A stretch of 46,110 bases of DNA from Catajapyx aquilonaris. Its lineage: Eukaryota. The notes under the pieces were generated by a model. The model saw nothing but the letters and a program-made list of their open reading frames with translations. It made no database searches and was not told the origin of the DNA. This document shows, one piece after another, positions 1 through 46,110 of the stretch. Where the stretch lies: contig JYFJ02003126.1 of assembly GCA_000934665.2 (NCBI GenBank), positions 1-46,110 on the forward strand, in the 5' to 3' direction. Position 1 is the stretch's first letter. Every line of letters begins with the position of its first letter. A program made the translations under genes and the position numbers.

Positions 1-204
1 GGCTCTTTAGAGAGTGAACAGACAATATGACATAACGTAACATAACAAAAATGCGTGTGACATGAATTGTGACATACAACAAATGCGTATGACTGTTAGC
101 TCTTGGTGTGACATGAGAATGTGACATCCAAAAAATGGGTATGACATATCGCAACGTACAAAAATTCGCTTGACATAAAAAAGTGACATTTGCGGTACAC
201 CCTG
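1..204. mobile_element. Terminus of a Tc1/mariner-type non-autonomous element with TGACAT subterminal repeats
   Basis: Ends ...GCGGTACACCCTG|TA (reverse complement TA|CAGGGTGTACCGC, a Tc1/mariner-like TIR start); repeated (G)TGACAT motifs across 1-190. Confidence 0.55.
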
Positions 205-294
205 TATCGCGGATGCTTGGAAATGTCATTCTCCCACCATGAAAACATCCAGCGGTGTTTCTGTCCTTCCCCCCCATTGCGTTGGTATGTTGTA

Positions 295-558
295 CCTAAC
301 CAAGCTCTGAACCCCTCCAAACCCGCTCCGGAACCGGGTTCAGCTCCGGTGCCATTGCCCCAACCAATCTCCGGAGCAAGCTGGCAAGCTCCCAACCAAA
401 CTCCGGACCCGCTCCGACCTTGGCACCACTCTGCTCCTGAACCGGCTTGAACCCAAACCAAACTCCGACACTCGCTCTGGACCCTGCTCTACTGCTCCAG
501 AGTGGCTTCGATGTTATCGGGTTTACAGAGCAAGGGTTCGGTTTGGTTCACAACCCTG
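295..558. mobile_element. Possible hAT-like MITE end with CTCCG/GAACC-type subterminal repeats
   Basis: Ends CAACCCTG at 551-558 (reverse complement CAGGGTTG...); short repeated motifs upstream. Partner TIR not seen. Confidence 0.35.
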
Positions 559-3500
559 ATTAGAAGGGTTTTCCAGACATGGTGGAATACATGAGGGGCT
601 GTATAAGTGGCCGATATTTAGTTCCTTTATTAGAAACTATTTTCAGCATTCGTAAAATTCAGGCAGTCACTCTTAAGGTCGAGGATAGACGTCAAGCATC
701 AGAGCCATGTGTTAAACTTTTCTTACGTACTTGGTGAGACATTTACTGATGTGTGGCATCTTAAGGTAATGAAAACCAGAACATCCTATCTTTAATAGTA
801 ACCACACATGAGCATTTTTTCAAAACCATTTCAAGCACACTTTTTTTGCTTGATGTGGTGAAGAAAAATGAGTGTAAATCCAAGATGGCAACAGTTTTAA
901 AGATTACGAAAGGAGTTTCGAGTAAGTCAGTATTAAGGCCACCTATGATGAAAATATTAAAAATTAACAAAATAGTCGAGCAACCACTTAGTATAAAATT
1001 GGGCAATTTCACATGGAATACCTTAGTGAATTCCCCAGGGTGGTTAATGCAACTGAAATTGCACCCAAGACAGATCCGGAAATGACCCAACTCCGCACGA
1101 GATGGAAGGGGGGAAAGCCCGCACTTGGGGTCATGCCTTGCAGTATGAGTTTTTATTATGCAAACTTCCGGTGTTAGTCAAGAGCATACATTATTCCTTA
1201 CAATCATCGTGAGGGAAAGCAGTGAACTGTGACTGTAATGGGTCCCAGATTCCCCAGAAATTTCACCATAATGGCATTTTGCTTGGTCATGATGACACTT
1301 TTAAAGTTGTTGTTGTTGTCATGTGTATTAGAAACCTGTGGTGCATGAAATTTTTTTGCATAACGAAATTATTCTCGTACAGATTGATCTTGCTCCTTGT
1401 CGTAGGCGGAAATGTTTGGGCTCCACACAAATGGGTGTTATTAAATATCTTGCAAGTGATGTCAGTAATGGTCGATGATTTTTGTATGCCTTTGTGACTG
1501 TTGTGCAATAATGATATATTATGGGCAAATTAGTTGAATGTGAGAAGCATGTTCTACAGTGCAGACAATGGGTCCAAATATTTCAAATGCTGAGTTCTGA
1601 GCCATGGCAGATCATTTTTTGCACGTTCAGTTTCTAATAAATTAGCAAAATTTGCACTGATCACTCTTCTGGTGTACAGGCTCAAATGCAACCTCACAGG
1701 GTGAGTCAAAACTAGCTTGGAAAAAATGGGGTTGAACCATTGACCTTGGATAGAGTCAAAATGGGATGATCTTGAACTCAAAATTTAATTGTTACCTGGA
1801 GATTGAAGGGATGCCTCTGTAAAATTGGGAAGAAATAAGTACTCGTTAAGCAGTGCACTGTAAAAGAACATTGCTGAGGGAAAAAGGGAATAATGTTGAT
1901 TGTTGTGTCCGATTAAGAATGCTGGTGCTTAATTATTGACAGTGTGACTTACTGATATTTTCAGACAAAAGCATCACAGACGGCTACCACAAAATGGTGG
2001 GACACCTTGGAGGAACCTCACTTACCACCTCTCAACAATTCAACAAGATGGGCGCTGGCAAAGGTGTTGCTTCCTAATGGGACTGCAATGAGTGTGTCGC
2101 AGCTGAGTGAGGCGACATGAGTGGGACTACTGGTCTCCGTCGAATGGAACTGGCCATTACCTGTGACATGAAACTTCAGCTTGGGGTGACAATGGTGATT
2201 AGCATCATCCATCAATGCACAGGTACGGTGTCTTAGCGTGTCAATGTTTCTTTCAGGTGAAAGTTGCTGTAATTTACTGTAGCAATATCATTACCATGTG
2301 CTAAGGAATTGACGGCTAGGGACTTATTAACTGCAACAATCAGTCAGGGGTACAATGGACTAGTGCTTATTCCACAGGCCAGCCAATTGGGAGGACTTGG
2401 ATTTTGGTAGTGTAGTGGAAGATTTTGAAGTGTGGTACTTGCTGGGCACTCGACAGCTGTTACAGGGTGGTATTCAGCCACAGTGGATGATGTGACGAGG
2501 GAGGGAGGGAGACAGTTGATGATGTAATCACGCCTTAGCTTTAGTTCTGACTAGGCCATTTTTTGAAGTTTCAACATCTGATTGATGCTCTTTTTTTTCT
2601 GAAGTATTTCTTGCCTGAGTGCTGCATGTGCACAGGAAGTTGACTTTTATCACATTACACCATCTACCACTAATTTTCTTTCCACTTTTTGAGACGTATG
2701 CAGCTGCACTTTCATGTAAAGTTAATTAATCCCTGTTGCATGATGGCCACAGGGATTGAGGCTTTACGAGACCAATTCAGCTGCTAGTTTTGGCAATTTA
2801 TAGTACATAGATAATTACGGAAAATGCTCATTGTTCATGTTTCACAGGCAAGTAAAATTTGGTGCACAATAGAGGAGGCAAATACTGAAAATGCATTGAG
2901 ATGAGACTGTATTGCATATACTGATGAGACTGTATTGCATATACCATTGCATTAACTTGCCCCATTATTCCTGCATGGGCTGTCAACTTTGGCAGGGCTT
3001 GACTGTGCATGCAGGGCTTTATTACTTACAACAAACAGCAAAGGCTGGTAGGAGTGGTCCAAGAGTAACAACTTTAGTAAAGGGATCAGTATCATTATTA
3101 TTTTCATTAGAGTGCTTCATACGTAGGTGCTGCAAAAAACCTGTACTGGTAGATTGTCCTCATGTCCATGCCAACCAAGGGCCTGACTGGTGGAGTTAGG
3201 TTGTTGCCTGCATGCAGTGTTGTGAAGCATACCTTGGATTTTTCCAAGGTCAAATGAGCCAGGGGCCATAGGGTTCATGCGTAGGATGTTTGTGACGTAC
3301 AAAATTTCTGGAACGAAATGAACACAGTTTGGGCTACATTTTTTAAGCAAGGAAACTGTCATGATAATAATTATTATTGTAATTTATATTTATAATTTTT
3401 GGAATAGGGTTTTATTGGCACTTTTTCTGTTGTGGTGAATATGTGAAGACTGAAAATTAATGCAGCCTCTCTTCTTTTCAGATTTCCAAGGACTGACCAA

Positions 3501-3712
3501 CATGTCATCACATCTGGGTCCATTGAACCATTTTTTCCCCTATGGTGAGCCGGCAGACATGCCATGCCCTGCCGGCTTCACCTCACGGACAAATGTCCCC
3601 TGACTCGCATCGGCCTCCAAACCTATCCTGTCCCCTGCTCTTTTCCCTCCAAAAACCTTCAAGGCCAGAGTCGGCCAACTCTGGCTCGACCTCCACAAGG
3701 TCCGCGCCTTGG

Positions 3713-3722
3713 CTATAAAAAA
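3713..3722 (+). promoter_or_regulatory. TATA-box-like CTATAAAAAA inside the loop of an 11-bp GC-rich inverted repeat
   Basis: CCGCGCCTTGG (3702-3712) / CCAAGGCGCGG (3729-3739) flank CTATAAAAAAGCAGCA; pyrimidine-rich Inr-like CACTCTCACTTC about 30 nt downstream. Confidence 0.4.
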
Positions 3723-3821
3723 GCAGCACCAAGGCGCGGGCACTCTCACTTCATCTGCAGCCTTCAACCAGGAACGACCAACCACCGAGCTCCGTAGCAG
3801 GCAGCAGCACTTCAGACAACC

Positions 3822-5491: not shown

Positions 5492-5944
5492 TAAAATATA
5501 GAACAAGAATCACTGAATGAAACTACTTGAAAATTTCCCATTGAGACGTTGGGTTCATTAAGCATGAGTAATAAAATCATGTACTGCTCCCCCTGACAGG
5601 TAGTTTGCCCTTGGAAGCTATTGTTGTACTGTTGGGCTTACAAGACTGTTAGCTGCATGTGCATTATGCTAGTGTATCACATACCATTTGAAGCATTTCT
5701 CACGACAGTGCCCAACCACAGTAGGGACGGCCTTTCTCTTATTCTGCAGAGCTTCCTCCAAGTCTTGGCTGGGTCTACTACGTTTCCTCGTAACTGATTT
5801 GTTTGCCTTGCACAGGCCCTCGGCTACACGTGACTTGAAAACAAACAAGGGCAAGTTGGCTACTTTCGGCGCATTGTTTTGCTGCTGGACCCTCCCTAAA
5901 CAAAAACCATGCATTGACCACTGATAAATCCACCAAATGAGTGA

Positions 5945-6600
5945 TACCTTTTTCCTCTGTTCAATCAGTGCGAAGTCTCTGTCTAAGCTGTGCCCCGTAG
6001 TCATGAACTTCTGTTCTATGCTTGTAAAGAAGCGCTTCTGCTCAAGTAGAACGAAGACACACAGCATCCTCCAGTTGTTGTTTTGGCCAACACACCTGTC
6101 TGACCACACGATCAGTTTTCTTTCCTCATGTGGTTGTAGCGGGCAGTACTTGTTCGTGATGTACTTCAGCAAGCAAGATGCAATTTCAGCTGGCCTTCCA
6201 TTCGTCTCGTGCCAAACACAAATTGTACTAGTGTCGTTCCACAATCACGTATTCCATAGTTGTACGTACTATACAACCTCTGATAGAATACCCTAGAATG
6301 TGTAAGTTGTGGACAGAGAAGTACCTGCTGCATGTCTACGCAAAGTACAATGACATTGTCATTATCTCTAGTAATATCGATATCAGCAGCCAGTTGATGG
6401 TACGCTTTCTCTGCTTTTCTGTGATGTAGTTCCGATTGCTGAAGGATTGCAGGTCATGCGGGTCCGTCTTTATTCTGCAGTTGCATGAAAAGTTTGTCGC
6501 ATGTGGAACAAGTGTCGGTCCTGGGTTGACCAAATCGCTACTTGAATTCAGAATTGAAGATATCTCGGTAGATGCAAAACTTTTGGTAACGCATGCACTT
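5945..6600 (-). mobile_element. Sola1-type transposase core fragment (frameshifted)
   Basis: Motifs FGQPRTDTCSTCD, VDMQQVLLCP, WSDRCVGQNNN and GHS..DRDFALIE in the expected order. Confidence 0.8.
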
Positions 6601-7139
6601 GCTGCAGATCAAACTGTCATTGTCATATCTGCGAAGTGCAGGCCATCGATAAGACGCTGTTGACATTGTGCTGCCAAATTCTGGCCCAGCAGGAAATGGC
6701 ACATATTTATCTGCACAACCTACCTTGCTTTTTTCGCCTCTTATCGTCTTCCTTTTTCGGGTCATTTAGGGGCAGTGATGGCATGGCCATCCTACACCTC
6801 TTTCCCATGGCGCTTTCGAGTAGGGGAAACCCAACAAGCACTGCAGCCTGTGGGTCCCTGCAAAACCACAAAATGAAATTGCTGGTTGCTTTATAGGCAA
6901 AGAGAGTTCCTGTGGCATCTACAAAATTATTGGGCACAATCACACAATCATATCATGCAATGCTTCAACATGGCATAAAGAGTAAATAATACAATATTAC
7001 ATGCAGTACAGCAAGACGTATTTAAGTTACATCAGAGCTGAAATTCTTCACGACAGCCAGCCATGAAGATTATGTATCAACGACTCATCCCAGTATATAT
7101 GAATTCATCCTGTCTCAGAAGCAAGGGTCACCTTACCTG

Positions 7140-7438
7140 GCACCCTCCTCGTCGAAAATCGTTCTTAACGACTTTGCTGGCTCATTCTCCGCTCGTCTCT
7201 TGCAAGAGGCGAGGAAAGCCCGCTTACTTGCCTCAGTTGGAACCGAATCGAGATTGTGGCCGGTTTGGCCTGCTGGCACGAAAGTGCCATCTAAAAGGAG
7301 ATGTGCCGCCCCTCCACAATCACGATTTATGCACCTCAAGTAAGTTGTGCCATTCGTAAGGGACACCTTGTTCTTTCTGTAAAGGAACCCTTCAAAAACG
7401 TATTGGTGCGAACCACGTCGCAGGCCTTCCTGTTTCAT
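7140..7438 (-). mobile_element. FLYWCH-type zinc finger fragment (MULE-associated)
   Basis: RRGSHQYVFEGFLYRKNK...TYLRCINRDCGG...GHN. Confidence 0.75.
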
Positions 7439-7579
7439 ATCGAAGCTGAAAGAGAGGGAGCAGAAAATCAGATCAGTATGTGTTCGCCTGACATTGTGAA
7501 ATAACGGTGAAAAATTGTTGAGGTGACGGGTAAGTCAGGCTAGTGTGGAATGTCGCTTACTATACTTACTTTGATTACT

Positions 7580-7880
7580 ATATTTCATGTCCTTCATAAC
7601 TCCCCTGTACACCTCATAACTGCATTTGACCTCTGCGCCTTCATCTGTGTCCTTAAAATCATTGTACATGGACCCTATGCTTAGTTCAGGTAGCAGATAA
7701 CGCCGACACGGGGCATGTTCGCGGCGATAATGGGATACAGCCGGTTTGTACTTCATGATATGGCTTCTAATGGCATCTTTGTTGATTAGTGCACCACCTC
7801 TGAAGCGTCCTCGTTGGTCTCGACCTGGCGCGCCAGTGTGAGGGTCAACAGTTTTGAAGGTTTCCATTATGATGCTTGTA
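7580..7880 (-). mobile_element. Sola1-type transposase fragment
   Basis: DQRG...IRSHI....SHYRR....RYLLPELSIGSMY. Confidence 0.75.
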
Positions 7881-7884
7881 TTTC

Positions 7885-8641
7885 CGTAGCCAATAGTTCC
7901 TCCGGGGCGTCGGACAGTGATGAGTCGAGGTGAAATTGTTTCGACTATAACTTTCGTGCCGTTCACCAAGCGGTCACCGAAATTGAGGTTGCGAATGATG
8001 AGCGCAACGCAGCCCTTCTTCATTGTCAGCACGTGATCAGGGACACCTTTTCCCGTGGCCAGGTGAAGGGTTTCCACTTGTATGTCGAAAGCCTCTGCAT
8101 CCTCTGTTTCGTCCATGTATTCGGCGCTGTACAGCCGATGAGCGTCTCCATCCAGCATATTCAGAACACGCTCGTTGACATCTCTCACATTGCAGTTATG
8201 AGTGCAGAGAACAACCCTCTTTGCAACTTCGTTGGGATCCATCAGCACGTGAGGTGGAAACACGAAACCGATGAGATCGCCAACTGACGTGCAAGTCTTG
8301 AGACCTTCGAGGGGAATTAACGATTGCGTGTCCCTTCCCTCGCCAAAAAGACGTTCAGACACCTTCCCCTCCCCGACCCGAAGCAGGAACGACGAGTAGG
8401 CCCCATCTCCTCTCGTTCGCTGTGCTGACGTCAACCGGAAGACCTTCATTGTTGGCCACAAGAAGGAAGCCCTGAAGGACACCGCAATGACATCGGAAGG
8501 GGTCCTGGCGTCAGGAACGACAGGCGGGATCTGCCTGAAGTCACCGGCGAAAATGACAATTTTGCCGCCGAAAGGTTCTCTAGACTGCATGAGATCCCTT
8601 AGTGACCTGTCCAGAATCTCCAGTAGAAACCTGTGCGCCAT
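7885..8641 (-). mobile_element. Helitron PIF1-family helicase fragment
   Basis: LDRSLRDLM..PFGGKIVIFAGDFRQIPPVV and PDHVLTMKKGCVALIIRNLNFGDRLVNGT. Confidence 0.9.
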
Positions 8642-9229
8642 CGGGCTTCATCGAAGATTATCAATGAATCCTCGCGGACAAGTTCAGCACGCTGCGAGCC
8701 GTTGGAGAGGCTCCCAAAAACCCGAACCATCACCTAGTTTTGTATGGGGCTCGTCTCAGCTCTCCCTTCTGCTACTTGTAGGTCAACCCATGCAGACTGT
8801 CGTCGTTAGGTGGCTGACAACGGCAGCATCTGCACAATGACCAAAATGGTCCCTTGAGCCTTTGCTGATCGGGATGAGGCCCCTCCTCATGACTCTTCGT
8901 CGTCTTATTATCAGCCGACGATGCCTTGACGGCCTGTTTCTCACTTTGGTCCATATCCGAAGAAGAAGGACACACTACCGGGTCGTCAGGGGTCCGAAAA
9001 TCTTAAAAAGATGAAGAAGAAAAAATCGACAGATGTTGGTTCCTGACAAAAAGGTTTATTACATATTCATACAATATCAACTCTATACTTTAAAACAACA
9101 TGTTGCATTTTCCTGATCTGATAAATGCTGAGGGGCAGAAAATGCTGTAATTTAGCAGAACATCAGCTTATGCCTACACACTGTTCGCTCAAAACAAAAG
9201 AGTGCGTAAGATTGTCAAATAAACCCTCA

Positions 9230-11008: not shown

Positions 11009-11428
11009 TTAACTTACTGTCTGTCTCAATTGCTGTAAAATTCTTCGAAGCAATTTGGCTCTTTTTGAAAACACGAAAATGTCTTGGCACTTTTTACAGG
11101 ATACATAAGACTTGCCTGGGCAATTCTTGCACCTGTTGCGGTTCGAGTTCCATACCGGCATATGTCCCACGCCATCAGTTCTGATGTCCTTGTTTGCGAT
11201 CGAAGACGTCCTTTTCTTATTTACTGGCCTGGTGATGGGACTTCCTGCACGCTTCGGCTTTCCCCCTGGAACTCCCTCAGGGCCATCACTTTTGTGACAT
11301 TTAGCTGGGGCATTTACTATGGAAACAGTGATGGTATGCCACCAAATGTATAAGTACCACCTCCTGGAGCGGATGGGGTACTTGTACAGTGAGGTGAGCA
11401 TGTCTAGAAGGTCAATCCCCCCATGAAC
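11009..11428 (-). mobile_element. piggyBac transposase C-terminal fragment (internally deleted)
   Basis: MG(fs)IDLLDMLTSLY....RRWY...VNA joined to the Cys-rich tail DIRTDGVGHMP...RCKNC...SCKKC. Confidence 0.85.
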
Positions 11429-11559
11429 GTATTATACTCTTGTGACCGGTTTGATGGCGCATACGATAGTGGGTAATGTCCAAGCAGATTTATTGCCGTT
11501 AGGGTTCGGGAGGAAGGGAAAAAGGGATAGGTGTATGATAAGCGTGCCACGGTGACTGA

Positions 11560-12750
11560 AAAGCCTCCAGCTCTTCATCACTGGTGTCCTCAGTGAATAC
11601 CAGTGGCTGTACTCGCTCCTCACATGCAACCTCGCTGCTCCAGTCCTCTTCAAACACCCTATTTACATGCTCCACATACTTCCTCCAGTCTTCTGGCTTC
11701 ACACAGGCGATAGCTTCCTCCTATACCGCCCTGGCGTTGGCCTCCCCAAAATTGCTCTGACATGCCACATGACCATTGTACTACCACTTCAACTTGGACC
11801 ATACATTCTCAATTGGATAATAATGGCAGTGGTAAGGGGGAAGCCGCACTACTTCATGGCCTTCCCTCGCCAGCAATTCATCGATTACATATTTCCGGTA
11901 GTGAGGCATGTGGGGGACAGCCAAGGAGTACAGCTCTTTCTTCAGGTGATTACCAGGGGGCAGCAGGTTCTTCTCCTCCAGCCACTTCCGGATCCTCTCC
12001 TTTCGCCACTTCTGGGTGGTCAACTCCTCTTCCTGCGTGGAATGGTAAGCAGCATTGTCCATGACAATAAGGCATCTTGATTTTGGTAGGTTTGGGATGA
12101 GCTGCTCCTTAACCCACCGAAGGAAAGTGTGTCCATTCATGTCCCCATGGTAATCACCTGTAGACCTGCTGGATTGAAAAATCAAGGATGCCCCTTTCAC
12201 AAACCCCTTGCCTCCACCGGCCTCACAGGTGCTTCAGTGTGCTCTCCTTCTTCCCGTCAAACCATGAGCGCCCCGTTTGGCATCCCCGTGAGAACACCCA
12301 CGTCTCATCCAGGTATATCACAGGAAGAGGCAGAGTCAAACTTGCATTCTCATGTATTCGGCGCAGGAAGTTGATCGTCATTGTCACTACGTGCGATTGT
12401 TCCAGCAGGTGGAGTCTTGTGTCCCCCTTCTTCCACCTGAACCCCAACTGTCGAAGGACTATGCGAAGAGACTTCTCACCACCTTTGAAGCCAACATCTT
12501 TTACCAGCGTGAGGATTGACCTCCCAGTTAGTAGAAGTCCCTTCGCATACTCCCCGTAGACGTTCCGCCGGATGGTCCCCCTGGTGAAATTATCTGGAGA
12601 GGTGTTAGGAAAAGAGCGTTTCCTTTTTTTCTCTGGTGTGGACACCTTCTCCCCCTTCCTCACAGTGCCCAAGATGCGGTAAATAGTGCTCACTGCTGTC
12701 CCTGTTGCTGAACGAACCCTATCCTTCATACTGAGACTCATCGCCCGATT
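11560..12750 (-). mobile_element. IS630/Tc1/mariner transposase, near complete, frameshifted
   Basis: YLDETWV, DYHGDMN...IVMDNAAYHS and LPPYHC..PIENVWS spread over ORFs 12223-12900, 11781-12200 and 11499-11702. Confidence 0.9.
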
Positions 12751-32075: not shown

Positions 32076-34689
32076 TTCTACACCCAGACACAACATATGG
32101 TTCATAATGGCACAATTGGGAGCACCTTTTTCTATGATGTTCATCATCCAGGAATTTTTATTAGGATTTAGGATCTAGAAGTTATTATGGAAAGGTATGG
32201 AAGTTATCTATAAACACCTTCAAGTTAATTCCTTTATATGACTACTCCTTGATGAGATCACGTATAACCATTTTAGCCAGAAGTTACAGTGGGACTTGTG
32301 GCTTAAGTGTTGCATGCATCAGTTGAAATGGTAATACACTGTCTTATTCTCTAAGCAGGTCTCTTGCTTCGTGACATTTTTAATTGATCCTGCTGCTTGC
32401 TCAATGCACGTGTAATGCGGTGTTGTAGGTTGGTCGACGGATGATTCCTATGTTGTATGTTTCAAACTGGTGCCCTTCAAACGTCGGATTGTTTTTGCAT
32501 GAAGAAAATGAAAGCATACCTGGACAGTAACCGTCCTACTGAAGAGGCCAGTTGGGGCTACATGCATTGAAGTCGCTTAGGAGCCATCGTCGCTGGTAGT
32601 TGGCTTTCCTGTCACATGTGTAGTTGGATGGCGAAAGAAATGTTATTGCATCCATCTTCGAGTTCTCTCTGGTCGAGAGTGATTCGTTGCGTGCTCCTGG
32701 ACCTGTTCCCATGGCGGATGCTATATAAAAATGAGATAAATGACCATGATTATCCGGGGGTCAGTGTCTCGTATTGTCTTACTTATCCAGGTTGACGCGA
32801 TGGAGGCCTTGATCAAGTTTTTCGATCACAAGTTGCCAGAGATACATAATTACTCGGTTGGCGATACATGACATTGACTATTCTCTCATCTGGACGACGA
32901 TCAGCCTTCCAGAATTCATCCTATACGCCAAATGGGGTTGGTGTGAACGTCGCACGACGCTATTCCATGAGCTTATCGTCCTTCACCTGTCGTGCAGTAG
33001 CATGTGGCAGTGTTTTCACCTCTGACGTATGCAGTGATGACGGTTGAACGAGCACTGGCAGACTCTGCATCTGTTCTGTCGAAATTGGTGAGCAAGACGG
33101 TTTCGTAGTTTTCCCATGGCGTCGTGGTATCATAATGAACGGACTTGAAGCACTCTTTACCCCGCTGTACATGTGAGGCGACCTCATGGTTACATGGGTC
33201 AGCAATGGACGCCCTGGAATTTCGCCCTGGACTTCCATAACGAAACTGTCGCAATGGGTCCTGTCAGGTGAAAAGCCAGGGTGTGTCACGTCTGGATATT
33301 ATTGTGCTGGACTTTCTGTATAATATTGATTGCAAGTGGATGGTGGGCTTCAGTAATGTATGAACAGCAGATGGAATCAGGCTCAGGGCAGTAACAGAGC
33401 ATTGATTTCTTGTTGTATGGTTGCTAGAAGAATAGTTATTCTGGTGTTGCTTGTGCTTGCACTGATCAAAGGGTAGCACTTTGAATTTTGATGCGCTTAA
33501 ATGCTTCGATATGTATGAAATTGTTACAAGTCAAAATCTAAACGCAAGCAGGTAGAACAAACCATATTTTGTGTTAATTTGGGTTGAATTATGAGAAAGG
33601 GATTAAGTTCTCGCCATATACTATTGCTTGGAGTAGGCCGTATGTGTTGTAGGAACCTGAAAATAAGGAGTAGGGTTGTCTTTTACAAGACAACAGCCAG
33701 CATCAATTGGATTGACACAAACCCAATAGGGCTGTGGGTGTGCCTGCAGTTGTCTTGGCTTTCCTTGCCACTACTGGACTAGATTATAAAAATTCGCTGA
33801 GCTGCCAGCACACCATTGTGGTTCATTTTATGCGTCGTTGCCTGTCACTCTACATCCTTCCTCATTGTTTACAGGATTGTGTCCTCTGCGTCCAACTGTT
33901 TCTTTCACTTGCCCCTCAACCTCATCACTTGTCAGGTCGAGGCTAGCAGAGTGGGACGCTCTTCTGGGGAATAACATGGGTTCCAATTATTCCCCTTTCT
34001 ATGTCATGGGTGTCGTCAGTTTTCTTGTCGTTATGAGTATAACATCTGAGTCTTAGCCACTTTCCTTTTAACCTTTGCACTGTTTCAGGCATTGAGAATG
34101 TTTAGACATAGTGTTATTTTGAGTGTATAAGAATAGGTATTTGTACAGTTGCGGATGGAATGACATTCCAACAATTCAGTAAGTTCATGTGGTTGCTATG
34201 AACTCCAAATTAGTTGAGCGATATCCAAGCTTGTGCCATGTAGTATTTTTCAATGAGGAAAGGAACCAGAAACACTTACGGTTAATGTAATTATGAACAA
34301 CTAGTTCTCTGAGCTTGATAGGAGGAAGTCTGTCGCTGAAGACCTGAAAGTTAGGATTTGACTTCAGAAGAATTACTGGGCGGAGGAGATTTAAGTGTCA
34401 CTTATGTAAGCTGAAGGCAGGTGACCAGTAAGTGTCTGTGGCAAGCATTCTCAATAAATGTATACAACTTCACCAGTTACAGCATGACAGTTGGCAAAAT
34501 GGTGATAGTGAGAAGCCTGCATTTTTCAAGGCTCGTGTTCACAAATGTGCGAAAGGTGGCCTGTAGATGTTGAAGCAAACTGCTTAATCAGTCACTTTTA
34601 CACTTGATTTCATCTCGGCATATTTTCTAAGTATGGCCAAAATACTCCAGGTGCAAGCTTGTTTGTATTGCTGTGATATTGCTATCGTC

Positions 34690-35671
34690 AGAAGGTGAAA
34701 GGCATTATGTGCATTTTCAGCAACTTTACAGGAGAAATTATTTTCCTGTCGATCTCCGCCTTTCGATTAGTTACATAACCCCTTTTAAAGGGTTTCCCCA
34801 CATGCTTTATTTAATGCTGAATCCATTTCTGACATCAGATTCGAGGTGGAATGCATATTAACCCCCCCCCCCCCTCCCCAGAGTACAAAATGCCTTTCAC
34901 CATCGGGGGAAACTGTGTACGGTAACCGACCGAATGGTGAAAGGCATTATACACACCCCGTAGTCGTTACAAATCTTATGAGTGTATATGTCACTCAATG
35001 TATTACCTACGCAGTGCAGTGAAGTGAAAAGAAGTTCTAGGTTGCCCATATTTATTAAGGAACATTATATTACATGACCTGAATACAACTTTACCGATAT
35101 TCCAAATAAAAGTTAGTTATTGCTAAACGAGAATGAGTTTGATTATTTAGGAACTATCATTCATAATATTGCTACTAAAATTCCGATAGAGGATCAGCCC
35201 TTTCGTCGGACTCAGGCAGTCTCTCCCAAAATGCCTTCCTGGTTGCAGGCATGTGTTTGCAGAGGGTCTCGAGAATCCTTCTCGTTTCTTGATGCCATTT
35301 ACACCCCTCGGAGTGCCTGCAGGAGCCTGTGGAAGGTGATGTCGTGCTTTCTTTTTCATCACCTCACACCTTTGCAATACCGTGTACTCTGCATGTTGGA
35401 ATGCAGTCTTGTAGCGAAAGGCATAGGAGTGTCGCTGGAATTTAATTTCACAAATTGACGAAAGCAGAGGCATGTCGTCATTTTTGGGCTTCCTGGCTCG
35501 GAATGTGTTCTCGAATTTGTAGATATCATCATCCGCAGTGAGCATTACTGCATTGTTGGGTACTGCGGCCTCCTTGCACACCTGTGCAAAGTCGGTGAAG
35601 TCATAAGCATTACCTACTTTCCGCATCCGCTGCTCGATCTTCCCAGGTATGCCATCGGCTGCCATGAACAC
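34690..35671 (-). mobile_element. Sola-type transposase C-terminus with GGTGAAAGGCAT subterminal repeats
   Basis: FMAADGIPGKIEQRMRKVGNAYDFTDF; GGTGAAAGGCATT direct at ~34693 and ~34936 and inverted at ~34890. Confidence 0.65.
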
Positions 35672-35752
35672 AGGAAGGGCTTTCCAATGTCATGCATGGT
35701 GAGATGTCTAGCCAGCACCGCCTTCCGGTTGAATCGAAGGTCGCACACCTGT
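35668..35752 (-). pseudogene. C2H2 zinc-finger fragment
   Basis: GQVCDLRFNRKAVLARHLTMHDIGKPFLC: C..F.....L..H...H plus a GKPF.C linker; first Cys missing. Confidence 0.6.
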
Positions 35753-36649: not shown

Positions 36650-37684
36650 ATTAGTTCTACTCCATTTCCTAAGCTTCTTGATTAGGCCCTCTTTACTGAT
36701 TTTTAGATTGGCATCAAACCATTTTGCACATGATGGAGTGGAATTAGGGTCTCTTTTTACTTTCTTGATCAATCCCCTTTCCCGTAAGGGTTTTTTCAGG
36801 GCGACCCTAAAGCTCAGAAATAATGCTGCTCAACATCCATTAATTCACCGTTATGTCCCTCCAGAGCTAGATCAATATCATCCTCAAGCAAATTTAGACC
36901 TTCCGTTGGTAGTATGAATCTATCAATATACGTATTATCTCGAGTATCTTTAGGGGTTTGTACATTATTGACAATTCTATTGATAAGTGGTGTGAACCCG
37001 GAATCTTTAATATCCTGAAATCTACGACCTTGCTTATGAAGAGGGAAGAGACTAGGGCATAATCAATAACACTCTGGCCCTGACCCGTTATAAATGGGGA
37101 ATGGCCTGCTTCGTCCGATGGACATACCCCATTTAAAATAAAACCGGCATTCTCCAAAAACGGGATAAATTGACTACCTCGATGATTTTTCTGCTCGTCT
37201 CTTACGTGATTTTATTCTTGTTAGTGGCGAAGCAAAGATTTCTCTCATGTCTCACTCGGCCCGGGATGAATCTCCCCATTCGATTGCTGCGTTCAATGGG
37301 TAAGTTGGGGTTGGGGAGTACCCCAAGGTCAGACAGGGTCTTCAGTACCTTGAACTCTGTCTCTCCCCACGTTTCTTGACCATCAGGAGCCTCCCCAAAT
37401 ATGACAATATTCTTTCTTCTACCTCGATCTTCCATGTCCACAATCTTGGATTCCAAGGCCAGGATCTTGTTGGTTGAAAACTCGAGTTGGTTGGCAAGGT
37501 CCGTCATTGTGGACTGGAGCTCGTTCACTTTCTCACTTTGTTCTTCCGCCCTCTTGTCACAGATCTTCGTGAGCTCAGACGTCACCCTCGTTGCCACCAG
37601 CTCAATTGCCCCCTGGATTTTGGAGTCCAACTTCTTCTCTAAGGCTTGTAGTAAGTCGGCCATCTCTTCCTTTGAAACCCCCAT
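36650..37684 (-). mobile_element. Deleted LINE (L2/CR1-group-like): ORF1 coiled-coil/RRM plus APE endonuclease end
   Basis: IVDMEDRGRRKNIVIFG...IERSNRMG; FILNG...GQSVIDYALVS...SHHL; downstream KWFD linker motif. Confidence 0.8.
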
Positions 37685-37835
37685 TTGGACGGATTCGAAC
37701 GGATTTGGCTGCCTATGTGTGGCCTTGTGAATGAGCGCCCCTCACACGTCCTATTGCTTTGCTGATGGCTGTGGAGCCCACGACGAGCATTCCAGAGGAC
37801 CCTCCTCCAGCCAAAGGAACAAGAAGTTGAGAAGT

Positions 37836-38410
37836 CAAGGTGCAGTACCTTACAGTATGTCAAAAATCGTAATTATGACTGCACTTATCGATCCATGTTC
37901 CCACTGCTGTCCAGGAAGACAGTGTCGCCACTGCTCTCTAAGGTGTGCACCCGGCGCATTAGAGGGGAACACATTGTGACCGCAAAGTCTTCTCCTCCCC
38001 CTAGACCATCTATGAATTCACAGCTGCCACCTGCTGTGCTCTTCTGATATTGCAGGACATGGTCCTTCAATGTATCCATCATCGCTGTTACAGTATAATT
38101 GATATGTTAGTTCTAGAAAAGAGAAAGGCATCTCTGCAGTGTACTCACATTCTGGTGTGCCAAACTGCCCTTCATAGTATGACTGCCTCAGTCGGAACAC
38201 CCACTTTATGTCGGGAACGTGGCGCCTGTCCTGGCTCAAGATAAGGTATTCCTCAGCGCTCATGTCTGCTTTTTCTCTGTAGTGCTGCTTTAATTGGCAC
38301 AGTGCCTTGCTTGGGCTTAGGCCAGTCTGAAAATACTGGAGCAGCATCTCCTTGAATTGGCCACAGATGAGGTGCTTTTTAGTAAGAGGTATTCCGTCAA
38401 TATTCATCAT
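37836..38410 (-). mobile_element. MULE-type transposase fragment
   Basis: YFQTGLSPSKAL and MCSPLMRRVH...VFLDSSGNMDR. Confidence 0.7.
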
Positions 38411-38899
38411 GACCTCTAGCTTGTAAAATGCAGAAACTACGTGACAATTGTCATACGCTTAGGTGTTACAATTCCATTGTGTAAGCCAGTGTTTGTAATG
38501 TCCTGTGTTAAGTACCAATGCATCATTCACAGAAACTTCCGATATATCTGGATAGTTGTGCTGTGGATCGTTGTAGTCGGAAGATATTGATAACGACGAA
38601 GTCCCATGCCCTGATTCTTCTTGAGAAGATGATGGCAGAGTTTGCAAATGATATCCCAGTTCCAAAGGGAATTCCTTTGGACATAGAAGGACGGCTCACA
38701 GGGCCTCGGTTAGAACCCGTTGAGTGGCACCTGGCTTGTGGACGAAGCGCCAGTCTGCAAATCTTGTGTAGCGACCGAAGGCCACGACTTCCCTTGGGCG
38801 GGGAGGCCATGCAGGCGAGCGTCCCTGGTCGTCTTCTTCCTGCACTGCGGGTGCACCTTGGCGCTTCCCATCGTGAGGGTGGGCAGGCCGTTGGTAAAT

Positions 38900-39745
38900 G
38901 CCCACCTCACCCCCAGTCTCCCAACTTGGTCTAGGAGCAGGGTTTTCGCTGTCCGAACCGCCCTCTCCACCTGGCCGTTGGATCGCGGATAGTTGGGGCT
39001 GGTGCGGATGTGCGAGAACGCCGAGAAATTTCACTCCTTGGCGAACGTCGTAAATTCCGCGCCGTTGAACGGTCGGTGGCCTTCCGTCCGATACGACCAC
39101 CACCGGTACGCCGTGGCGGGCAAATACCGTCTTCAGCGCCGGGATAGCCACCTCCGCCGCCAGGCTGTGGATCAGCTCCACGTATTTAGAGTAGAAGTCC
39201 ACCACTTCCATGTAGTGTGCGTTCTTGTAGTCCAGGAAGTCGACCGCAACCCTCCCATGGCGTGTACGGGGTGGGGGTGCGGCATGTATGGCTCCGGTCC
39301 GTTGATCGCCTGGAAAGAGTCTTTGCTCACAAAATTTTGACTAAAAACCCTCTGCAGGAAAAACCATAACACGTTTTTTTTACACAAAAAAAAGGAAAGA
39401 GACATTGGTCACAAAATTTTTACAAAAAAACAAAAAAAAAATGTGAGAGATGGTTGCTCGAGGCGGCAGAGGAACCACCTTGCAGCAAACTTGAAGGCGC
39501 AGGCGGGAGGGAGATCCAGAGCATTCTTGGCAGGTCCGCACCATTTCTTTGATCTGTGATTGCAGGCCTGGCCAGTAGATGCAGCTTCTCGCCCTCTCTC
39601 TCTCTCTGGTGTTTACTATCCCCTGATGCGCTGAATGCAGCCTCACCAGCATCTCCTCCTGGAACCCGCGCGGGATGACGATCAGGTCCTGGCGGAGAAC
39701 GAGGCCCTCCCACAGCTCCAGCTCGTCCCTGACCGGCCAGAAGCA
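38900..39745 (-). mobile_element. Gypsy integrase (zinc finger plus core), interrupted by an A-rich insert at ~39320-39490
   Basis: LHSAHQGI...IYWPGL...CQEC; VVDFYSKY...FARHGVP..VVSDG; NGQVERAVRTAK. Confidence 0.9.
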
Positions 39746-40179
39746 CCCAAAATGGTCTTGGTTTAGCGCTTTAACAGCCCTGACAATGGTTATTCGTTTA
39801 TTGCATTGTTTGAAACGATCACACTGACTTTTCCTAACAAGTCCCACTCAGCGACAATGCGTGGAAGTGCATTGAATTTTATTTAGGATTACTATCATAC
39901 ACATACAGTATACTGATACAACTTAGTCAGCTATTAACGGGGTTATTCCAGACACTGTCTCATCTGTCTCGTCTCCTTTATACAGAAGTTCCAAAACAAA
40001 GATATTTCCTTTGGAACAACACCTTCCAGAAGGACATGCATAGGATCAAATAGGAAGTATTTTGTTAAGGAAATGTAGGTGATATCATGTAAAAATGTCA
40101 TTCCTTTTAAACAGTACTCAACTGATTACTGGATCTTTTCTTTCTCATTGGTGCATGCTTCCAGCTTATGTGCTTGCTG

Positions 40180-40360
40180 CCATTGGATTCCTCGTCCAGC
40201 TCCAACTGTGTGTACGCCTCCGCCAGGTCCATTTTTGAGAAAATTGTAGCTCCCCCCAGGGTTGCCAGCAATTCCCCTACCGTTGGCAAGGTGTACTGGT
40301 CCACCACAAGGGCCTTGTTTACTGTGGCCTTGTGGTCACCGCAGATACGAATTCCCTTCA
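40180..40360 (-). mobile_element. Gypsy reverse transcriptase fragment
   Basis: IRICGDHKATVN...YTLP...FSKMDLAEAYTQL. Confidence 0.9.
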
Positions 40361-40799
40361 AGGTCACTCTGCAAGTTGGATTGCCCCTAGCATAGGGTGG
40401 GACTGTGTGTAACTTTGCACGATCTACGAACTAATTTGACTTTACGGCTGAAGCATTCCTTAAATCCCGAAATGTCGAAGCAGGCAAGGGTGTCCCCAAT
40501 GTTTTTATTTTTTTAAAATTTTGTAAATTTTTATTTTCATTGCCCCTGTGGGCTTTACATAGCCTTTGGGGGGAGACAAGCCGGTGGACAAAATTACAAG
40601 AGAAAGGGTATCCCCAATGTATGAATACGGGCATCATAAAAAATCTCTCCTCACCACTACTTGTTTGAAAGACTATTTCTTAAGAGCTTAGGGTCAACAC
40701 AGTTTGGAGGAAATTGGCCAAGAGTGTTTCTTTGGACTCATTGGTTTTTAGACTGGATGCTGCTCCAACTGCCAAAAGACGATTGTTTTGCAGCGTGGA

Positions 40800-40945
40800 C
40801 CGCAGGTGGGGTGGTACATTCCAAGTAGAAAAGCATGACTTTTCCCTTTCCACCTCTTTTCATACCTAGGGCATTACCTAACTCTACCTCATCATTGTAC
40901 AGTGATAGTGCCAGAGCAGTCTTGTCATGTTCACTCCAAATTTCA
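40800..40945 (-). mobile_element. EnSpm/CACTA-like transposase fragment
   Basis: LSLYNDEVELGNALG....K...FY. Confidence 0.65.
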
Positions 40946-40949
40946 TGGC

Positions 40950-41330
40950 ATTTCTCTTCATTCACCGTGAGGCCCGCTTCTTGGATACGTCTCAGTACAT
41001 CACTCAGTCGGCTGTCGTGTATCTCCTGAGTTTCCCCGTACATCAATAAGTCGTCCATATGACAGACTACACCGTGTAGGCCAGCCAGGATCGCTGACAA
41101 TTTTCTTTTGGGAATGCTCAGGTGTGCTGCATATCCGGAACGGAAGGCGTAAGAATTTCAACCTCCCGAAAGGGCTTATAAAAGTAGTTAACCTTGACGA
41201 TTCTTCTGACAAGGGCACTTGCCAAAAACCACTGTTGCAGTCGATTTTTGACAATACTTTAGCCCCCTTCAGCTGAGCCAACGTGTGCTCTACCGCTGGT
41301 AGTGGGTGATGCTCCCTCTTGGGTGACTCC
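40950..41330 (-). mobile_element. Gypsy reverse transcriptase fragment (second family)
   Basis: SKIDCNSGFWQV...TTFISPFG...RLPF and CHMDDLL. Confidence 0.9.
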
Positions 41331-42172
41331 TTGTACTGTTGGTACTCAAATGCTTCGGCCACACCTGCAATTACAGGTGACTCTTGTATACACAGGATGA
41401 TTGCTGGTTTGTCTCTGCGATCTGAATTGACTTGGATTCAATCTTTAAACTGGTATGGGACAGGTTATTACCACAACTAATGAAAATATGATACATAATT
41501 GGAATTATCCTCCCAGATATTTATTTTCTTTATGGCACCCTCTTCTTGTGGAATTCTGTTTCATTATCAATTTGAATTTTCCTGAGCTCCATATCATAGC
41601 ATGGCGCTCTTTGCTCTCCTCTATGGCCGCCTCTCACATCAACCTCCTCTTCTTCACCTGCATTTCATGGATGGCTTTTTCCTGTCTTGTTTGTTTGTTT
41701 GTTTGTTTGTTCGTAGTATGCAATTTTGGTTGCTGCCAGGGCGGAGAGGCGGTTGGCAGCCACAGCCCGAGGGGTTGGTCCAGGCTTGTCAGGATGACGG
41801 CGCCGAGTCCAGGGGTTCCTGCGGCTATTTCTCCCTGGTACTACTTTGCTGCCGAAAAAAAGCGTAGCTGCTGCTAGAAGGGGAAGCAGCTGGACGGAGG
41901 TGCTCCAAGAAAAGATTGGATTAGGAGTGGATGATGGCAGGAGACAAGGGTGAAAGTGNTGTGCAGAAACCATACATTTGGAACAGCTGCATTTCTCAAA
42001 TTAACCAGTGTGTTCTTTACGTTTAGCAAAACCATGCTATCTTCTCAAGTAATAACACAAAATGATTTCATTTTTGATGTTGATCGCATGTATGCTAATT
42101 TGCCTCAAGAGTCTGAGAACAATGAATTGCTAGTTAATTATGAGATGACTTCTCCTATACTTATCCCAGAAG

Positions 42173-44412: not shown

Positions 44413-44800
44413 CAAGGTGCAGTACTTTATGTCAAAAATCGTAATTATGACAGCACTTACCGATCCATGTTCCCACTGCTGTCCAGGAAGACAGTGTCGC
44501 CACTGCTTTCTATGGTGTGCACCCGGCGCATTAGAGGGGAACACATTGTGACCGCAAAGTCTTCTCCTCCCCCTAGACCATCTATAAATTCACAGCTGCC
44601 ACCTGCTGTGCTCTTCTGATATTGCAGGACATGATCCTTCAATGTATCCATCATCTCTGTGAATTTTTATTTTCCCATCGATGCTGTTAATGAGATTTCT
44701 GAGAAATCTTCCTGGGGTTTTCCACAATTTCCTATTCAACAAGCGCTTCTTTATGTAATTAAAGTGGCCCTCGACTAATGAATTGCTGCTTCTTTTCATA
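44413..44800 (-). mobile_element. MULE fragments; 44413-44655 duplicates 37836-38083
   Basis: Near-identical DNA and ORF to 37885-38082; adjacent NSLVEGHFNYIKK motif. Confidence 0.75.
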
Positions 44801-45009
44801 CCTCTAAGAGATTTTTTTTAAATACATTATAACAGCACTCCGCAAGCACAAATAGGGCAAATAGTTCTTCAAAAGAATATCGACAGCATTTATACTCTGT
44901 AGTGGATTAGGTAGTAGGTTTTCCTTCTCATTACACTGATTTTGTGACATTGCTTTCTTTCCAGCCTCATTGGCAATGACTTGGAAGTGCCTATAAAATG
45001 GGGACTGCC

Positions 45010-45296
45010 CTCTCTATTTTTTTTTATAATTACCCCGTGATGGGGGGGGAGCCCTCTTAGGGGGGAAGAGGACGTTCCCAAGGGAGGGCGCTGACTATTA
45101 GTCATTTCTGACTCTGTGAAATACACCAGACCTTTTCTGCTGGCCCCGGGCAGAGTAGGGAGTGCAATTCTGCCCCGGCATGTCGGGTGAAAAGCGGAAA
45201 AAGACCCGGCGAAGCAGAGGTGACGGGGACGGGATTCGAACCCCGGCCTCCCGCTTGGCTGGCCAGCGGCGTAACCGATAGACCTCCATGCCTCCC
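45010..45296 (-). mobile_element. tRNA(Gly)-derived SINE
   Basis: Head ...GCCAAGCGGGAGGCCGGGGTTCGAATCCCG (B box; resembles the tRNA-Gly GCC 3' half), tRNA-unrelated body, A-run near 45017-45026. Confidence 0.7.
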
Positions 45297-45418
45297 TGGA
45301 TATAACTTATTTGTTGAATGACATTTAATTGTGTGGTGCCATTGCTACCTGAAATTCCCTCTAGCGAATCCTCCCAGGTTGCTACTATGTCCATAAATGT
45401 GTCCTTATGCTTGGCGCC

Positions 45419-45453
45419 ATGTCCCGGGCAAACTGGGACGGTTGGTCACGCTA
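45419..45453. mobile_element. hAT (Blackjack-like) terminus
   Basis: Reverse complement TAGCGTGACCAACCGTCCCAGTTTGCCCGGGACA resembles (T/C)AGGGTGACCA..GTCCC termini. Confidence 0.55.
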
Positions 45454-46110
45454 TTTGATGAGTAGGCTACTAATAACACTGGTCTGCAAGGTTTTTGTGG
45501 GAAGGAACATTGATGGGGATCCTAATTGAACTTTTTATTCTGAATTCTAATATGCAGTCTCTCTATCACCCAGAGTTTGTTTTGCGGCACACAAGTTATA
45601 TTAGAGGATATGAACACAGTAGTACATTTGCATGCATGATATTGGCTGCCAAAAAAATTTACTACATCGCACAGTGATTCAGATCGACGTAAAACATGGA
45701 CAAAATGTCCAAGATTGTTGTATTTACATGAAAATTGAGAAATTGGGGTTTGCAAGGTTGCTGAATCCGAATATGAAGTCAGGTGTATGAAATTCAAAAT
45801 GACTGGTCCAAGATGGCAGATATAAAATTGAAAACTTCTCTGATTTCTTAACAAGTGTTGTCCTAGGTTTATTAGGTTCCTAAATTTAAATCCATATAAG
45901 TTATATATATAGTTAAATGTTTAGAAAAGTTAATAGTTAAAAGTCATCTTTAAATATTTTAATCACTGATATCACTATGGCCACTATCACTGCTGATATT
46001 GTCTTCCACATCCGATTGCTCCAATCCAACTTCACTTCTCGGTGATTTTAGAAGCTGGCGCACTTCTGCTGGAATGCTGCTAGCCTTCCTCCTTGGCAGT
46101 GGTCTCATAG

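Follow-up and report, generated by a model that had tools for sequence, protein, structure and literature searches.

Background

Work in Drosophila located flam-like unistrand clusters from their strand bias and afterwards verified them by small-RNA data (van Lopik et al., 2023, PMC10643416). In the account given there, loci chosen by strand bias alone gave one-strand piRNAs in both species with data, and the bias and enrichment in the flam-like clusters were carried by Gypsy elements only. The 46,110-nucleotide stretch of DNA analysed here (the window) resembles flamenco and the flam-like clusters, as far as that account describes them, in forming a block, tens of kilobases long or longer, whose transposon remnants lie nearly all on one strand, although the direction of any precursor is putative. 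It differs from them in being known from its sequence alone, and in that a non-retroviral viral gene and DNA-transposon-type remnants (Helitron, Tc1-type, piggyBac-like and two DUF7869-type) share the bias. Neither Gypsy enrichment nor a bias of Gypsy elements alone was found in the window, where LTR-type pieces make up four of about 13.

In Aedes, 543 of 614 LTRs have the same polarity as the nearest EVE, and Ty3/gypsy elements are associated with Rhabdoviridae (Whitfield et al., 10.1101/127498). Unidirectional piRNA clusters are reported there with non-retroviral EVEs among LTR fragments (10.1101/127498; Qu et al., 10.1101/2022.08.22.504762; PMC7161354), and published work on the mosquito core clusters shows read-through from an upstream gene. 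That piRNA clusters mix EVE and TE fragments in one direction is nothing new in print. As in the Aedes clusters so described, the window holds a non-retroviral, rhabdovirus-type remnant amid TE fragments that share its polarity, adjoining a Ty3/gypsy-type LTR remnant. It differs in that only one EVE is supported within it, LTR density is modest and the host is apparently no mosquito.

For mammalian introns, too, an antisense bias of LTR elements and LINEs is described and attributed to purifying selection on host transcripts; the study says nothing on DNA transposons because it excluded them (Zhang et al., 2011, PMC3088655). The remnants in the window likewise oppose a presumed direction of transcription, whereas the mammalian case sits in host genes, none of which was identified in the window.

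Strand bias of the coding remnants

All 428 stop-to-stop ORFs of at least 50 aa in the 46-kb window (212 plus, 216 minus) were compared with Pfam at E ≤ 0.01, and 17 had any match. Ten of these were to transposon or virus families, and all ten lay on the minus strand (DUF7869, FLYWCH, PIF1 with Pif1_2B, DDE_3, Asp_protease_2, Rhabdo_glycop_FD, RT_RNaseH, Integrase_H2C2 and RVT_1 twice). The other seven were MATH_2, UPF0242, YbjM and NosD on the minus strand and DIM1, FhuF_C and Mago-bind on the plus strand, where the only strong match was DIM1, a host gene copy. A relaxed scan (E ≤ 1) of 141 ORFs of at least 82 aa (67 plus, 74 minus), leaving out 11 already matched, gave matches for 22 minus ORFs, six of them to transposon families (DDE_Tnp_1_7, Ty3_capsid, Exo_endo_phos_2, DUF4817, rve_3 and RVT_1), and for seven plus ORFs, none of them to a transposon family.

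Across both scans, about 13 separate transposon or virus pieces could be named on the minus strand and none on the plus strand (Table 1; two-sided sign test, 2 × 0.5^13 = 2.4e-4), with the reservation that their independence is uncertain: the gag-like piece at 24.0–24.4 kb and the protease at 15.4–16.4 kb could be one element split later. Restricting the count to matches above the curated Pfam cutoffs left six of six pieces on the minus strand (p = 0.03). The strong minus-strand polarity claimed in the original prediction was thus borne out, while its tally of about 35 of 39 fragments from more than 12 superfamilies was not reproduced, some six to eight element types being nameable among the roughly 13 independent pieces.

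Table 1. Features located in the window.
Feature	Positions	Strand	Evidence
DUF7869-type repeat-gene remnant, piece A	5672..6244	minus	Pfam DUF7869 E 6e-4, 19.9 bits, under cutoff 26
Helitron-type helicase remnant (PIF1 and 2B domains), then FLYWCH zinc finger	7136..8647	minus	Pfam PIF1 E 5e-21, Pif1_2B E 2e-6, FLYWCH E 8e-4
piggyBac-like transposase tail (weak)	11012..11431	minus	DDE_Tnp_1_7 E 0.12, last 39 profile positions (310-348 of 349)
Tc1/IS630-type (DDE_3) transposase remnant, frameshifted	11784..12948	minus	DDE_3 E 1.5e-9, 38.3 bits, above cutoff
Local duplicate copy A, uninterrupted	13780..14837		96% identical to 17234-18043 and, inverted, 19861-20449
Retropepsin-type protease remnant (LTR-retrotransposon type)	15394..16425	minus	Asp_protease_2 E 2e-5, 25.6 bits, above cutoff
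Local duplicate copy B, split by nested element	17234..19140		17234-18043 and 19058-19140 match stretches adjacent in copy A
Nested high-copy TIR element (MITE-like), ~1 kb, TA..TA flanks	18044..19057		126-nt arms, 83% complementary
Local duplicate copy C, inverted	19861..20454		96-97% identity to copies A and B, reverse complement
Inserted segment with intronless DIM1 (TXNL4A-type) copy	20919..21999	plus	CDS ~21340-21762; DIM1 E 3e-67, full profile 1-133 of 133
Rhabdovirus-glycoprotein-like endogenous viral remnant, two overlapping frames	22424..23384	minus	Rhabdo_glycop_FD at 22878-23384, E 4.5e-5, 24.6 bits, above cutoff 22
Ty3/gypsy capsid-like remnant (weak)	24048..24413	minus	Ty3_capsid E 0.019
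LTR-retrotransposon pol remnant	31003..32077	minus	RT_RNaseH E 3e-8 at 31892-32077
DUF7869-type remnant, piece B	35150..35689	minus	Atlas feature search, nearest DUF7869-bearing clusters; score 0.95, 204/256 shared features
Possible LINE remnant (weak): coiled-coil ORF, then endonuclease-like ORF	36897..37741	minus	Exo_endo_phos_2 E 0.2 at 36897-37211
HTH (DUF4817)-type ORF	38021..38458	minus	DUF4817 E 0.07
Gypsy-type pol remnant (RT, integrase zinc finger and core), broken over several frames	38699..41437	minus	E ≤ 0.01 scan: RVT_1 E 4e-7 and 9e-7, Integrase_H2C2 E 5e-10; relaxed scan: RVT_1 E 0.02, rve_3 E 0.057
Longest ORF without family match, 288 aa	42176..43039	minus	

A homology-free comparison of ORF asymmetry with 300 dinucleotide-preserving shuffles gave the same picture. 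There were 15 minus and four plus ORFs of at least 150 aa, against null expectations of 1.0 and 1.5 (z 14.7 and 2.0, respectively), and the difference between minus and plus was matched in none of the 300 shuffles for each of six measures. Two of the four plus ORFs lie opposite minus-strand matches and one is DIM1. Residues in ORFs of at least 100 aa were commoner on the minus strand in 10 of 12 4-kb bins, the first and last included, and the bins at 20–28 kb were without strand bias. The minus-strand bias of coding remnants is real, far beyond chance and present across nearly the whole window. The annotated pieces sum to about 12 kb of ORF spans, roughly a quarter of the window; beyond that quarter, the bias is a matter of ORF statistics.

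A bias of this kind could also arise in an ordinary long plus-strand transcription unit with no piRNA role, be it an intron of great length, a long non-coding transcript or a read-through tail, if sense insertions, with the poly(A) and splice signals they carry, were purged and antisense remnants stayed. That LTR elements and LINEs within genes tend to lie antisense is well established (PMC3088655). The plus strand of the window is, moreover, T-rich throughout (A 11,788, T 13,720), and its AT skew is negative in 20 of 23 2-kb bins. Against this, besides the weak, chance-type FhuF_C and Mago-bind, the plus strand yielded only DIM1 at E ≤ 0.01, in a scan that was confined to the window without its flanks and that short exons would escape. 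Poly(A)-signal hexamers number 43 on the plus and 60 on the minus strand (both z ~2.3), so that the plus strand is not specifically depleted of them beyond what composition predicts. Intronic antisense bias is usually moderate; among the named pieces of the window the strand bias is complete, and it includes DNA-transposon remnants. We consider a transcription unit of this ordinary kind unlikely.

A candidate piRNA source locus

The best reading, to which we give about an even chance, is that the window belongs to a uni-strand piRNA source locus read along the plus strand, or makes up the whole of one; transcription, its direction and any piRNA output are inferred. Uni-strand clusters of the flamenco type are defined by small RNAs of 24–31 nt with a 1U bias that come overwhelmingly from one genomic strand, and have a long single precursor that starts at a discrete promoter or arises by read-through from an upstream gene. 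In the window, plus-strand transcription of a graveyard of transposons and viruses would yield a long precursor antisense to the minus-oriented remnants, to be processed into piRNAs that can base-pair with the mRNAs of transposons and viruses. Elements would insert, duplicate and decay at random, and the bias would build up as insertions whose sense strand matches the precursor were lost, or never came to be useful. Counting against this reading are the unbiased bins at 20–28 kb, the plus strand's lack of any specific shortage of poly(A)-signal hexamers, and a mixed content unlike the Gypsy-carried bias of flam-like clusters. Because the bias reaches both ends of the window, any precursor start should lie outside it; the spread over the 4-kb bins likewise puts the locus at a minimum of about 46 kb, a size within the tens to hundreds of kilobases of uni-strand clusters.

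Structurally, the window is a well-supported candidate; it is no demonstrated system, and the underlying idea is already published for flies and mosquitoes. If small RNAs confirm it, the approach would offer a way to find piRNA source loci from sequence alone in an arthropod-type genome that has received little study, and orientation selection would be seen to act on DNA transposons too, besides retrovirus-like elements, which bears on the generality of the trap model of transposon immunity. A wider proposition is that the genome keeps many uni-strand small-RNA loci, their antisense archive consisting mostly of DNA transposons, other env-less elements and viral genes, with some pieces perhaps derived from sub-genomic TE-virus or TE-TE hybrid cDNAs. 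We hold this to be improbable; if many such loci did exist, flamenco-type logic would extend well beyond Gypsy elements.

Transposon and viral remnants

The Helitron-type remnant has its FLYWCH zinc finger in the same frame as the PIF1/2B helicase, with one stop between them, and is 5′-truncated, since the PIF1 match covers only profile positions 112–219 of 223. Downstream of the Tc1/IS630-type piece, whose upstream part (ORF 12226–12948) had no Pfam match, lies a Cys-rich tail that we take to be piggyBac-like; the gap between the two, read from the translation, is about 130 bp. Piece B of the DUF7869 type had no DUF7869 match in the relaxed Pfam scan (E ≤ 1), and its recognition score of 1797 is under the 2300 reached by 91 in 100 known-family proteins.

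The closest PDB match of the viral remnant is the rabies G ectodomain, at an E-value of only 0.74. The remnant lies about 0.7 kb downstream of the Ty3-capsid-like remnant in the same orientation, and a single contig (22425–24517) covers both at single-copy depth.

Among the LTR-type remnants, the stretch at 31003–31566 is a possible integrase tail after the RNase H, as judged by eye, and no LTR pair was found for the Gypsy-type pol remnant in a repeat comparison within the window. The ORF at 37205–37741 matched only coiled-coil families in the relaxed scan, and is presumably LINE ORF1-like. The 3′ end of the DUF4817-type ORF is repeated on the same strand at 44413–44660 as a 253-bp direct repeat of 95% identity; this was rejected as an LTR pair, the repeat starting inside the ORF. 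The ORF at 42176–43039 had no match in either Pfam scan or in the Atlas, nothing at E ≤ 1e-3 among 1.84 billion representatives and none in a word-index search of longer proteins; its AF2 model has a pLDDT of 32. Homology searches likewise detected no relatives of the long ORF at 29633–30286.

Insertion, duplication and word depth

The window grew by ordinary insertion and duplication. The termini of the nested TIR element were read directly, and the matching empty site is present in copy A. A segment of about 1.08 kb bearing the DIM1 copy is flanked by two stretches that are contiguous in copy A, and so splits another duplicate.

These structures bear on the proposal that the locus is an immune archive, compact and spacer-like, which takes up internal transposon and virus fragments of less than a kilobase by an active process and in fixed orientation, for instance by RT template switching or dedicated acquisition. 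Some pieces are indeed internal, without terminal repeats and close together, as at the Tc1-like end and the piggyBac-like tail, and the viral G beside the gag-like remnant in the same orientation is what a TE-virus hybrid cDNA would give. However, the window displays an ordinary insertion flanked by a target-site duplication, as well as local duplication and a host-gene copy that was itself inserted. Its pieces carry frameshifts and stops, as after long decay; those recognised reach 2.7 kb and are mostly separated by kilobase-scale gaps. Neither repeat-spacer regularity nor an acquisition signature was found in the repeat comparisons of the window. We regard such an archive as highly improbable. 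The original prediction had seen internal, abutting pieces without TIRs, LTRs or TSDs, arising by capture rather than ordinary nesting. Its account of the termini fits the Tc1-like piece, which has no bracketing inverted repeat and hence no flanking TIR, and fails for the TIR element with its TA duplication; the nested element in copy B and the DIM1 segment contradict the dismissal of nesting; and close spacing applies to some pieces and not to most. The bias that motivated its uni-strand piRNA-type reading is real, and the spacer-like part of that reading is unsupported.

Historical accident would need only a few large insertions, together with duplications and inversions of local sequence, in a repeat block of low recombination, and neither selection on orientation nor function; we judge it unlikely. 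Local duplication with inversion is seen directly in copies A, B and C, the LTR-type remnants perhaps derive from fewer elements than were counted, annotation is lacking for most of the window, and its remnants are old and decayed. Yet about 13 pieces on the same strand (p ~2e-4) are hard to reconcile with accident, and the unrelated types among them (Helitron, Tc1-type, DUF7869-type, LTR and viral G) each need an insertion of their own.

The depth of DNA words in the animal's own reads, which is no copy number, speaks on the same point. Most pieces compared with these reads showed single-copy word depth, among them piece A, inside contigs spanning 5291–6826, and the Tc1/IS630-type piece, covered by contigs 11591–12210 and 12181–13949. 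Single-copy depth holds for most of the 5–25 kb region, and the window is therefore no copy of a single composite element. The Helitron-type remnant, at a word depth of 140–234, and the TIR element, at 4,900–14,400, stand above the ~30 of single-copy parts. For a candidate piRNA source locus, the single-copy depth of most pieces would point to a long-dead graveyard more than to an active defence, as there are no near-identical copies elsewhere to silence.

The DIM1 copy is unbroken from Met to ..KYR and then runs without a stop until 21942. This sole host-gene copy lies in the opposite, harmless orientation, a single case.

Strand polarity of the coding remnants

A Pfam scan (E ≤ 0.01) of all 428 stop-to-stop open reading frames (ORFs) of at least 50 aa in the window (212 plus, 216 minus) gave matches for 17, and all ten matches to transposon or virus families lie on the minus strand (Table). 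The other seven were MATH_2, UPF0242, YbjM and NosD on the minus strand and DIM1, FhuF_C and Mago-bind on the plus strand, with DIM1 the sole strong match among them (E 3e-67, full profile). When the threshold was relaxed to E ≤ 1 for 141 ORFs of at least 82 aa (67 plus, 74 minus; 11 already-matched ORFs left out), matches were obtained for 22 minus-strand and seven plus-strand ORFs; transposon families accounted for six of the former, each in a sensible context, and for none of the latter. Among the shorter ORFs (50-81 aa), a relaxed scan of 138 of the 276, up to position 25225, gave just noise, including a plus-strand Rhabdo_M2 match (E 0.18), and stop-spanning frames of the minus strand at 1-12000 added nothing when compared with Pfam.

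Features of the window, with the basis of each assignment
Feature	Position	Strand	Basis
DUF7869	5672-6244	minus	Pfam, E 6e-4
FLYWCH	7136-7534	minus	Pfam, E 8e-4
PIF1 + Pif1_2B (Helitron-type helicase)	7538-8647	minus	Pfam, E 5e-21
DDE_Tnp_1_7	11012-11431	minus	Relaxed Pfam scan, extreme end of profile
DDE_3	11784-12233	minus	Pfam, E 1.5e-9
Copy A	13780-14837		~1-kb local duplicate
Asp_protease_2	15394-16425	minus	Pfam, E 2e-5
Copy B	17234-18043 + 19058-19140		Same orientation as copy A
MITE-like element	18044-19057		Inverted ends, TA both sides
Copy C	19861-20454		Inverted
DIM1/TXNL4A-type copy	21322-21942 (CDS about 21340-21762)	plus	Pfam
Rhabdo_glycop_FD	22878-23384	minus	Pfam, E 4.5e-5
Ty3_capsid	24048-24413	minus	Relaxed Pfam scan
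RT_RNaseH	31892-32077	minus	Pfam, E 3e-8
DUF7869-like	35150-35689	minus	Nearest protein Atlas clusters DUF7869-bearing (score 0.95); recognition score 1797, short of the 2300 usual for known families
Exo_endo_phos_2	36897-37211	minus	Relaxed Pfam scan
DUF4817	38021-38458	minus	Relaxed Pfam scan
rve_3	38713-39030	minus	Relaxed Pfam scan, within Gypsy-type pol stretch
Integrase_H2C2	39383-39847	minus	Pfam, E 5e-10
RVT_1	40110-40430	minus	Relaxed Pfam scan, within Gypsy-type pol stretch
RVT_1	40741-41157	minus	Pfam, E 4e-7
RVT_1	41003-41437	minus	Pfam, E 9e-7
288-aa ORF	42176-43039	minus	Longest ORF without a family match

Grouping neighbouring domains leaves about 13 separate pieces on the minus strand and none on the plus (two-sided sign test, 2.4e-4), the independence of the pieces being uncertain because LTR-type pieces lying far apart may come from a single element that was split. 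Matches above the Pfam curated cutoffs alone are six of six on the minus strand (p = 0.03). The Helitron-type helicase and FLYWCH zinc-finger ORFs (7136-8647, minus) share a frame with one stop codon between them, and may be what is left of a single protein, not two fragments that happen to abut.

The bias was also evident without recourse to homology. Against 300 dinucleotide-preserving shuffles of the window in 2-kb blocks, 15 ORFs of at least 150 aa were found on the minus strand (null 1.0, z 14.7) and four on the plus (null 1.5, z 2.0); at 100 aa or more, the counts were 51 and 33 (null 13.0 and 16.7). The difference between minus and plus was matched in none of the 300 shuffles on any of six measures, and composition alone predicts slightly fewer long ORFs on the minus strand than on the plus. 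Of the four long plus-strand ORFs, DIM1 is one, two lie opposite the minus-strand DDE_3 and G-like regions, and the last falls inside a local duplicate without any match. The minus-strand excess holds in ten of twelve 4-kb bins, both ends of the window included, and is absent at 20-28 kb. Over the 46,110 bases (G+C 40-50%), the plus strand is T-rich (A 11,788 vs T 13,720), with a negative AT skew in 20 of 23 bins. Taken together, the Pfam matches, the ORF excess and the AT skew establish that the strand polarity is real.

The original prediction of coding remnants biased to the minus strand is thus upheld by the ten of ten Pfam matches, the six of six in the relaxed scan, the sign test and the shuffles. 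Its inventory of some 39 fragments from more than 12 superfamilies was not reached: about 13 pieces could be named, summing to ~12 kb, or roughly a quarter of the window.

Assembly integrity

Contigs assembled independently from the reads of one sample (four DNA runs), itself a possible source of the assembly, contain 84-89% of sampled words of 5001-15000, and those from three of the runs cover 30 of 30 bins over 5001-25000. DNA contigs span 5291-6826, 8573-10386, 10507-11295, 11591-12210, 12181-13949, 15466-16835, 20395-21373 and 22425-24517 at single-copy depth, which speaks against local chimeras in these stretches. They fall short of proof for the long-range order, especially through the 17-20 kb repeats.

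In all three of these runs, contigs join across 5046-5309, skipping 262 bases with six other letters instead, and across 16638-16797, skipping 158 bases, where the shorter side of the joint is just 25 letters. Deletion alleles or paralogues may underlie these joins. The one N in the window (41959), which falls in the interval from the Gypsy-type RT remnant to the 288-aa ORF, may mark an assembly join.

A candidate uni-strand piRNA source locus

The window has the layout of a uni-strand piRNA source locus, whose precursor would run along the plus strand. We give this reading about even odds. This kind of locus is already known. Drosophila flam-like loci were recognised by this same one-strand signature and borne out in the cases with small-RNA data; there, however, Gypsy elements alone carry the bias (PMC10643416), whereas here DNA transposons carry it too. 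In Aedes, unidirectional piRNA clusters are described as holding endogenous viral elements (EVEs) and TE fragments intermingled in a single orientation; most of these EVEs neighbour an LTR element of like polarity, and Ty3/gypsy is associated with Rhabdoviridae (10.1101/127498). The rhabdovirus-G remnant in the window, ~0.7 kb downstream of the Ty3-capsid-like remnant on the same strand, fits this picture. For mosquito core clusters, transcription running on from a gene upstream is reported as a frequent source (10.1101/2022.08.22.504762). Most predicted clusters of the crustacean Parhyale are reported to be bidirectional (10.1101/2025.05.30.656998), so that uni-strand loci are no given outside insects.

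The main rival, which we hold less probable, is that the window belongs to an ordinary long transcription unit of the plus strand, from which sense insertions have been purged (PMC3088655). Such a unit accounts for the direction of the bias, but is a poorer fit to its completeness and to the inclusion of DNA transposons. Poly(A) hexamers on the plus strand show no depletion beyond that expected from composition. Weighing against a piRNA source locus, 31-mers are unique over most of 5-25 kb in DNA from this animal, and most pieces there hence have no near-identical targets.

Insertion, duplication and decay

The original prediction further proposed spacer-like capture of fragments, for which we found no positive evidence; several observations favour ordinary insertion, duplication and decay instead. 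No repeat-spacer array was found, and the tandem repeats are small microsatellites only. A ~1-kb sequence is present in three copies (A, B and C; identity 93-98%). Copy B is interrupted by an element with inverted ends of ~126 nt and TA on both sides, whose empty site is seen in copy A. Word depth within this element is 4,900-14,400 in contigs of the animal's own DNA, vs ~30 in unique parts; at several hundred times the depth of unique sequence, it belongs to a family very abundant in this genome. It is thus a high-copy, MITE-like element inserted in the ordinary way. It also carries an internal 81-nt direct repeat.

The claim that the window holds mostly internal fragments without terminal structures therefore stands in part. 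It suits the Tc1-type piece, for which no flanking inverted repeat was found and which ends ~130 bp from a piggyBac-like tail read from translation, and the Gypsy-type pol stretch, for which no LTRs were found in the window. It does not suit the TIR element with its TA flanks, the local duplication or the inserted DIM1. A 253-bp direct repeat (37836-38088 and 44413-44660) was considered as the possible LTRs of the Gypsy-type piece and rejected: it begins inside the DUF4817 ORF and consists of two same-strand pieces of one family.

Orphan ORFs, run X5 and the DIM1 copy

Viral glycoproteins were predicted in the plural; one rhabdovirus-G-like remnant is supported, itself without a match among longer proteins, and no second viral remnant is. 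The 288-aa ORF, which has a hydrophobic stretch, several Cys and N-x-T/S sites, was probably another of those intended. It has no relative in Pfam, and nothing was returned by the Atlas, by phmmer run on 1.84 billion representatives or by a word-index search among longer proteins; its AF2 single-sequence model (pLDDT 32) was unusable. The ORF at 29633-30286 likewise has no relatives among proteins of similar length. PDB sequence searches with four ORFs gave chance-level matches at most, and Rfam and tRNA scans of the window found nothing.

Of the five sequencing runs found, four are the DNA runs of one sample and the fifth, X5, is of unrecorded kind. X5 yields short contigs over 5001-25000 at 6524-6761 (one difference) and 23638-23883 (none), both single-copy in DNA, as well as in the DIM1 copy and the high-copy element. 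By relative depth the run seems nearer to RNA than to DNA; as its kind is unrecorded, it is no evidence of expression. Were it an RNA run, it would indicate low-level transcription from the locus, on either strand.

The DIM1-bearing segment (~1.08 kb) parts two stretches that lie side by side in copy A. The gene copy has no intron and stays open from Met to ..KYR, after which the usual end is missing and the frame continues as far as a stop at 21942. An X5 contig of 301 nt over 21447-21747 differs from it at eight positions (depth 50), and some of these alternative letters also occur in DNA contigs of the same animal, showing that a second DIM1 copy exists, which is probably the parental one. 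This host-gene copy, a single case, is opposite in orientation to the remnants, and under plus-strand reading would give sense RNAs only, harmless to its parent gene.
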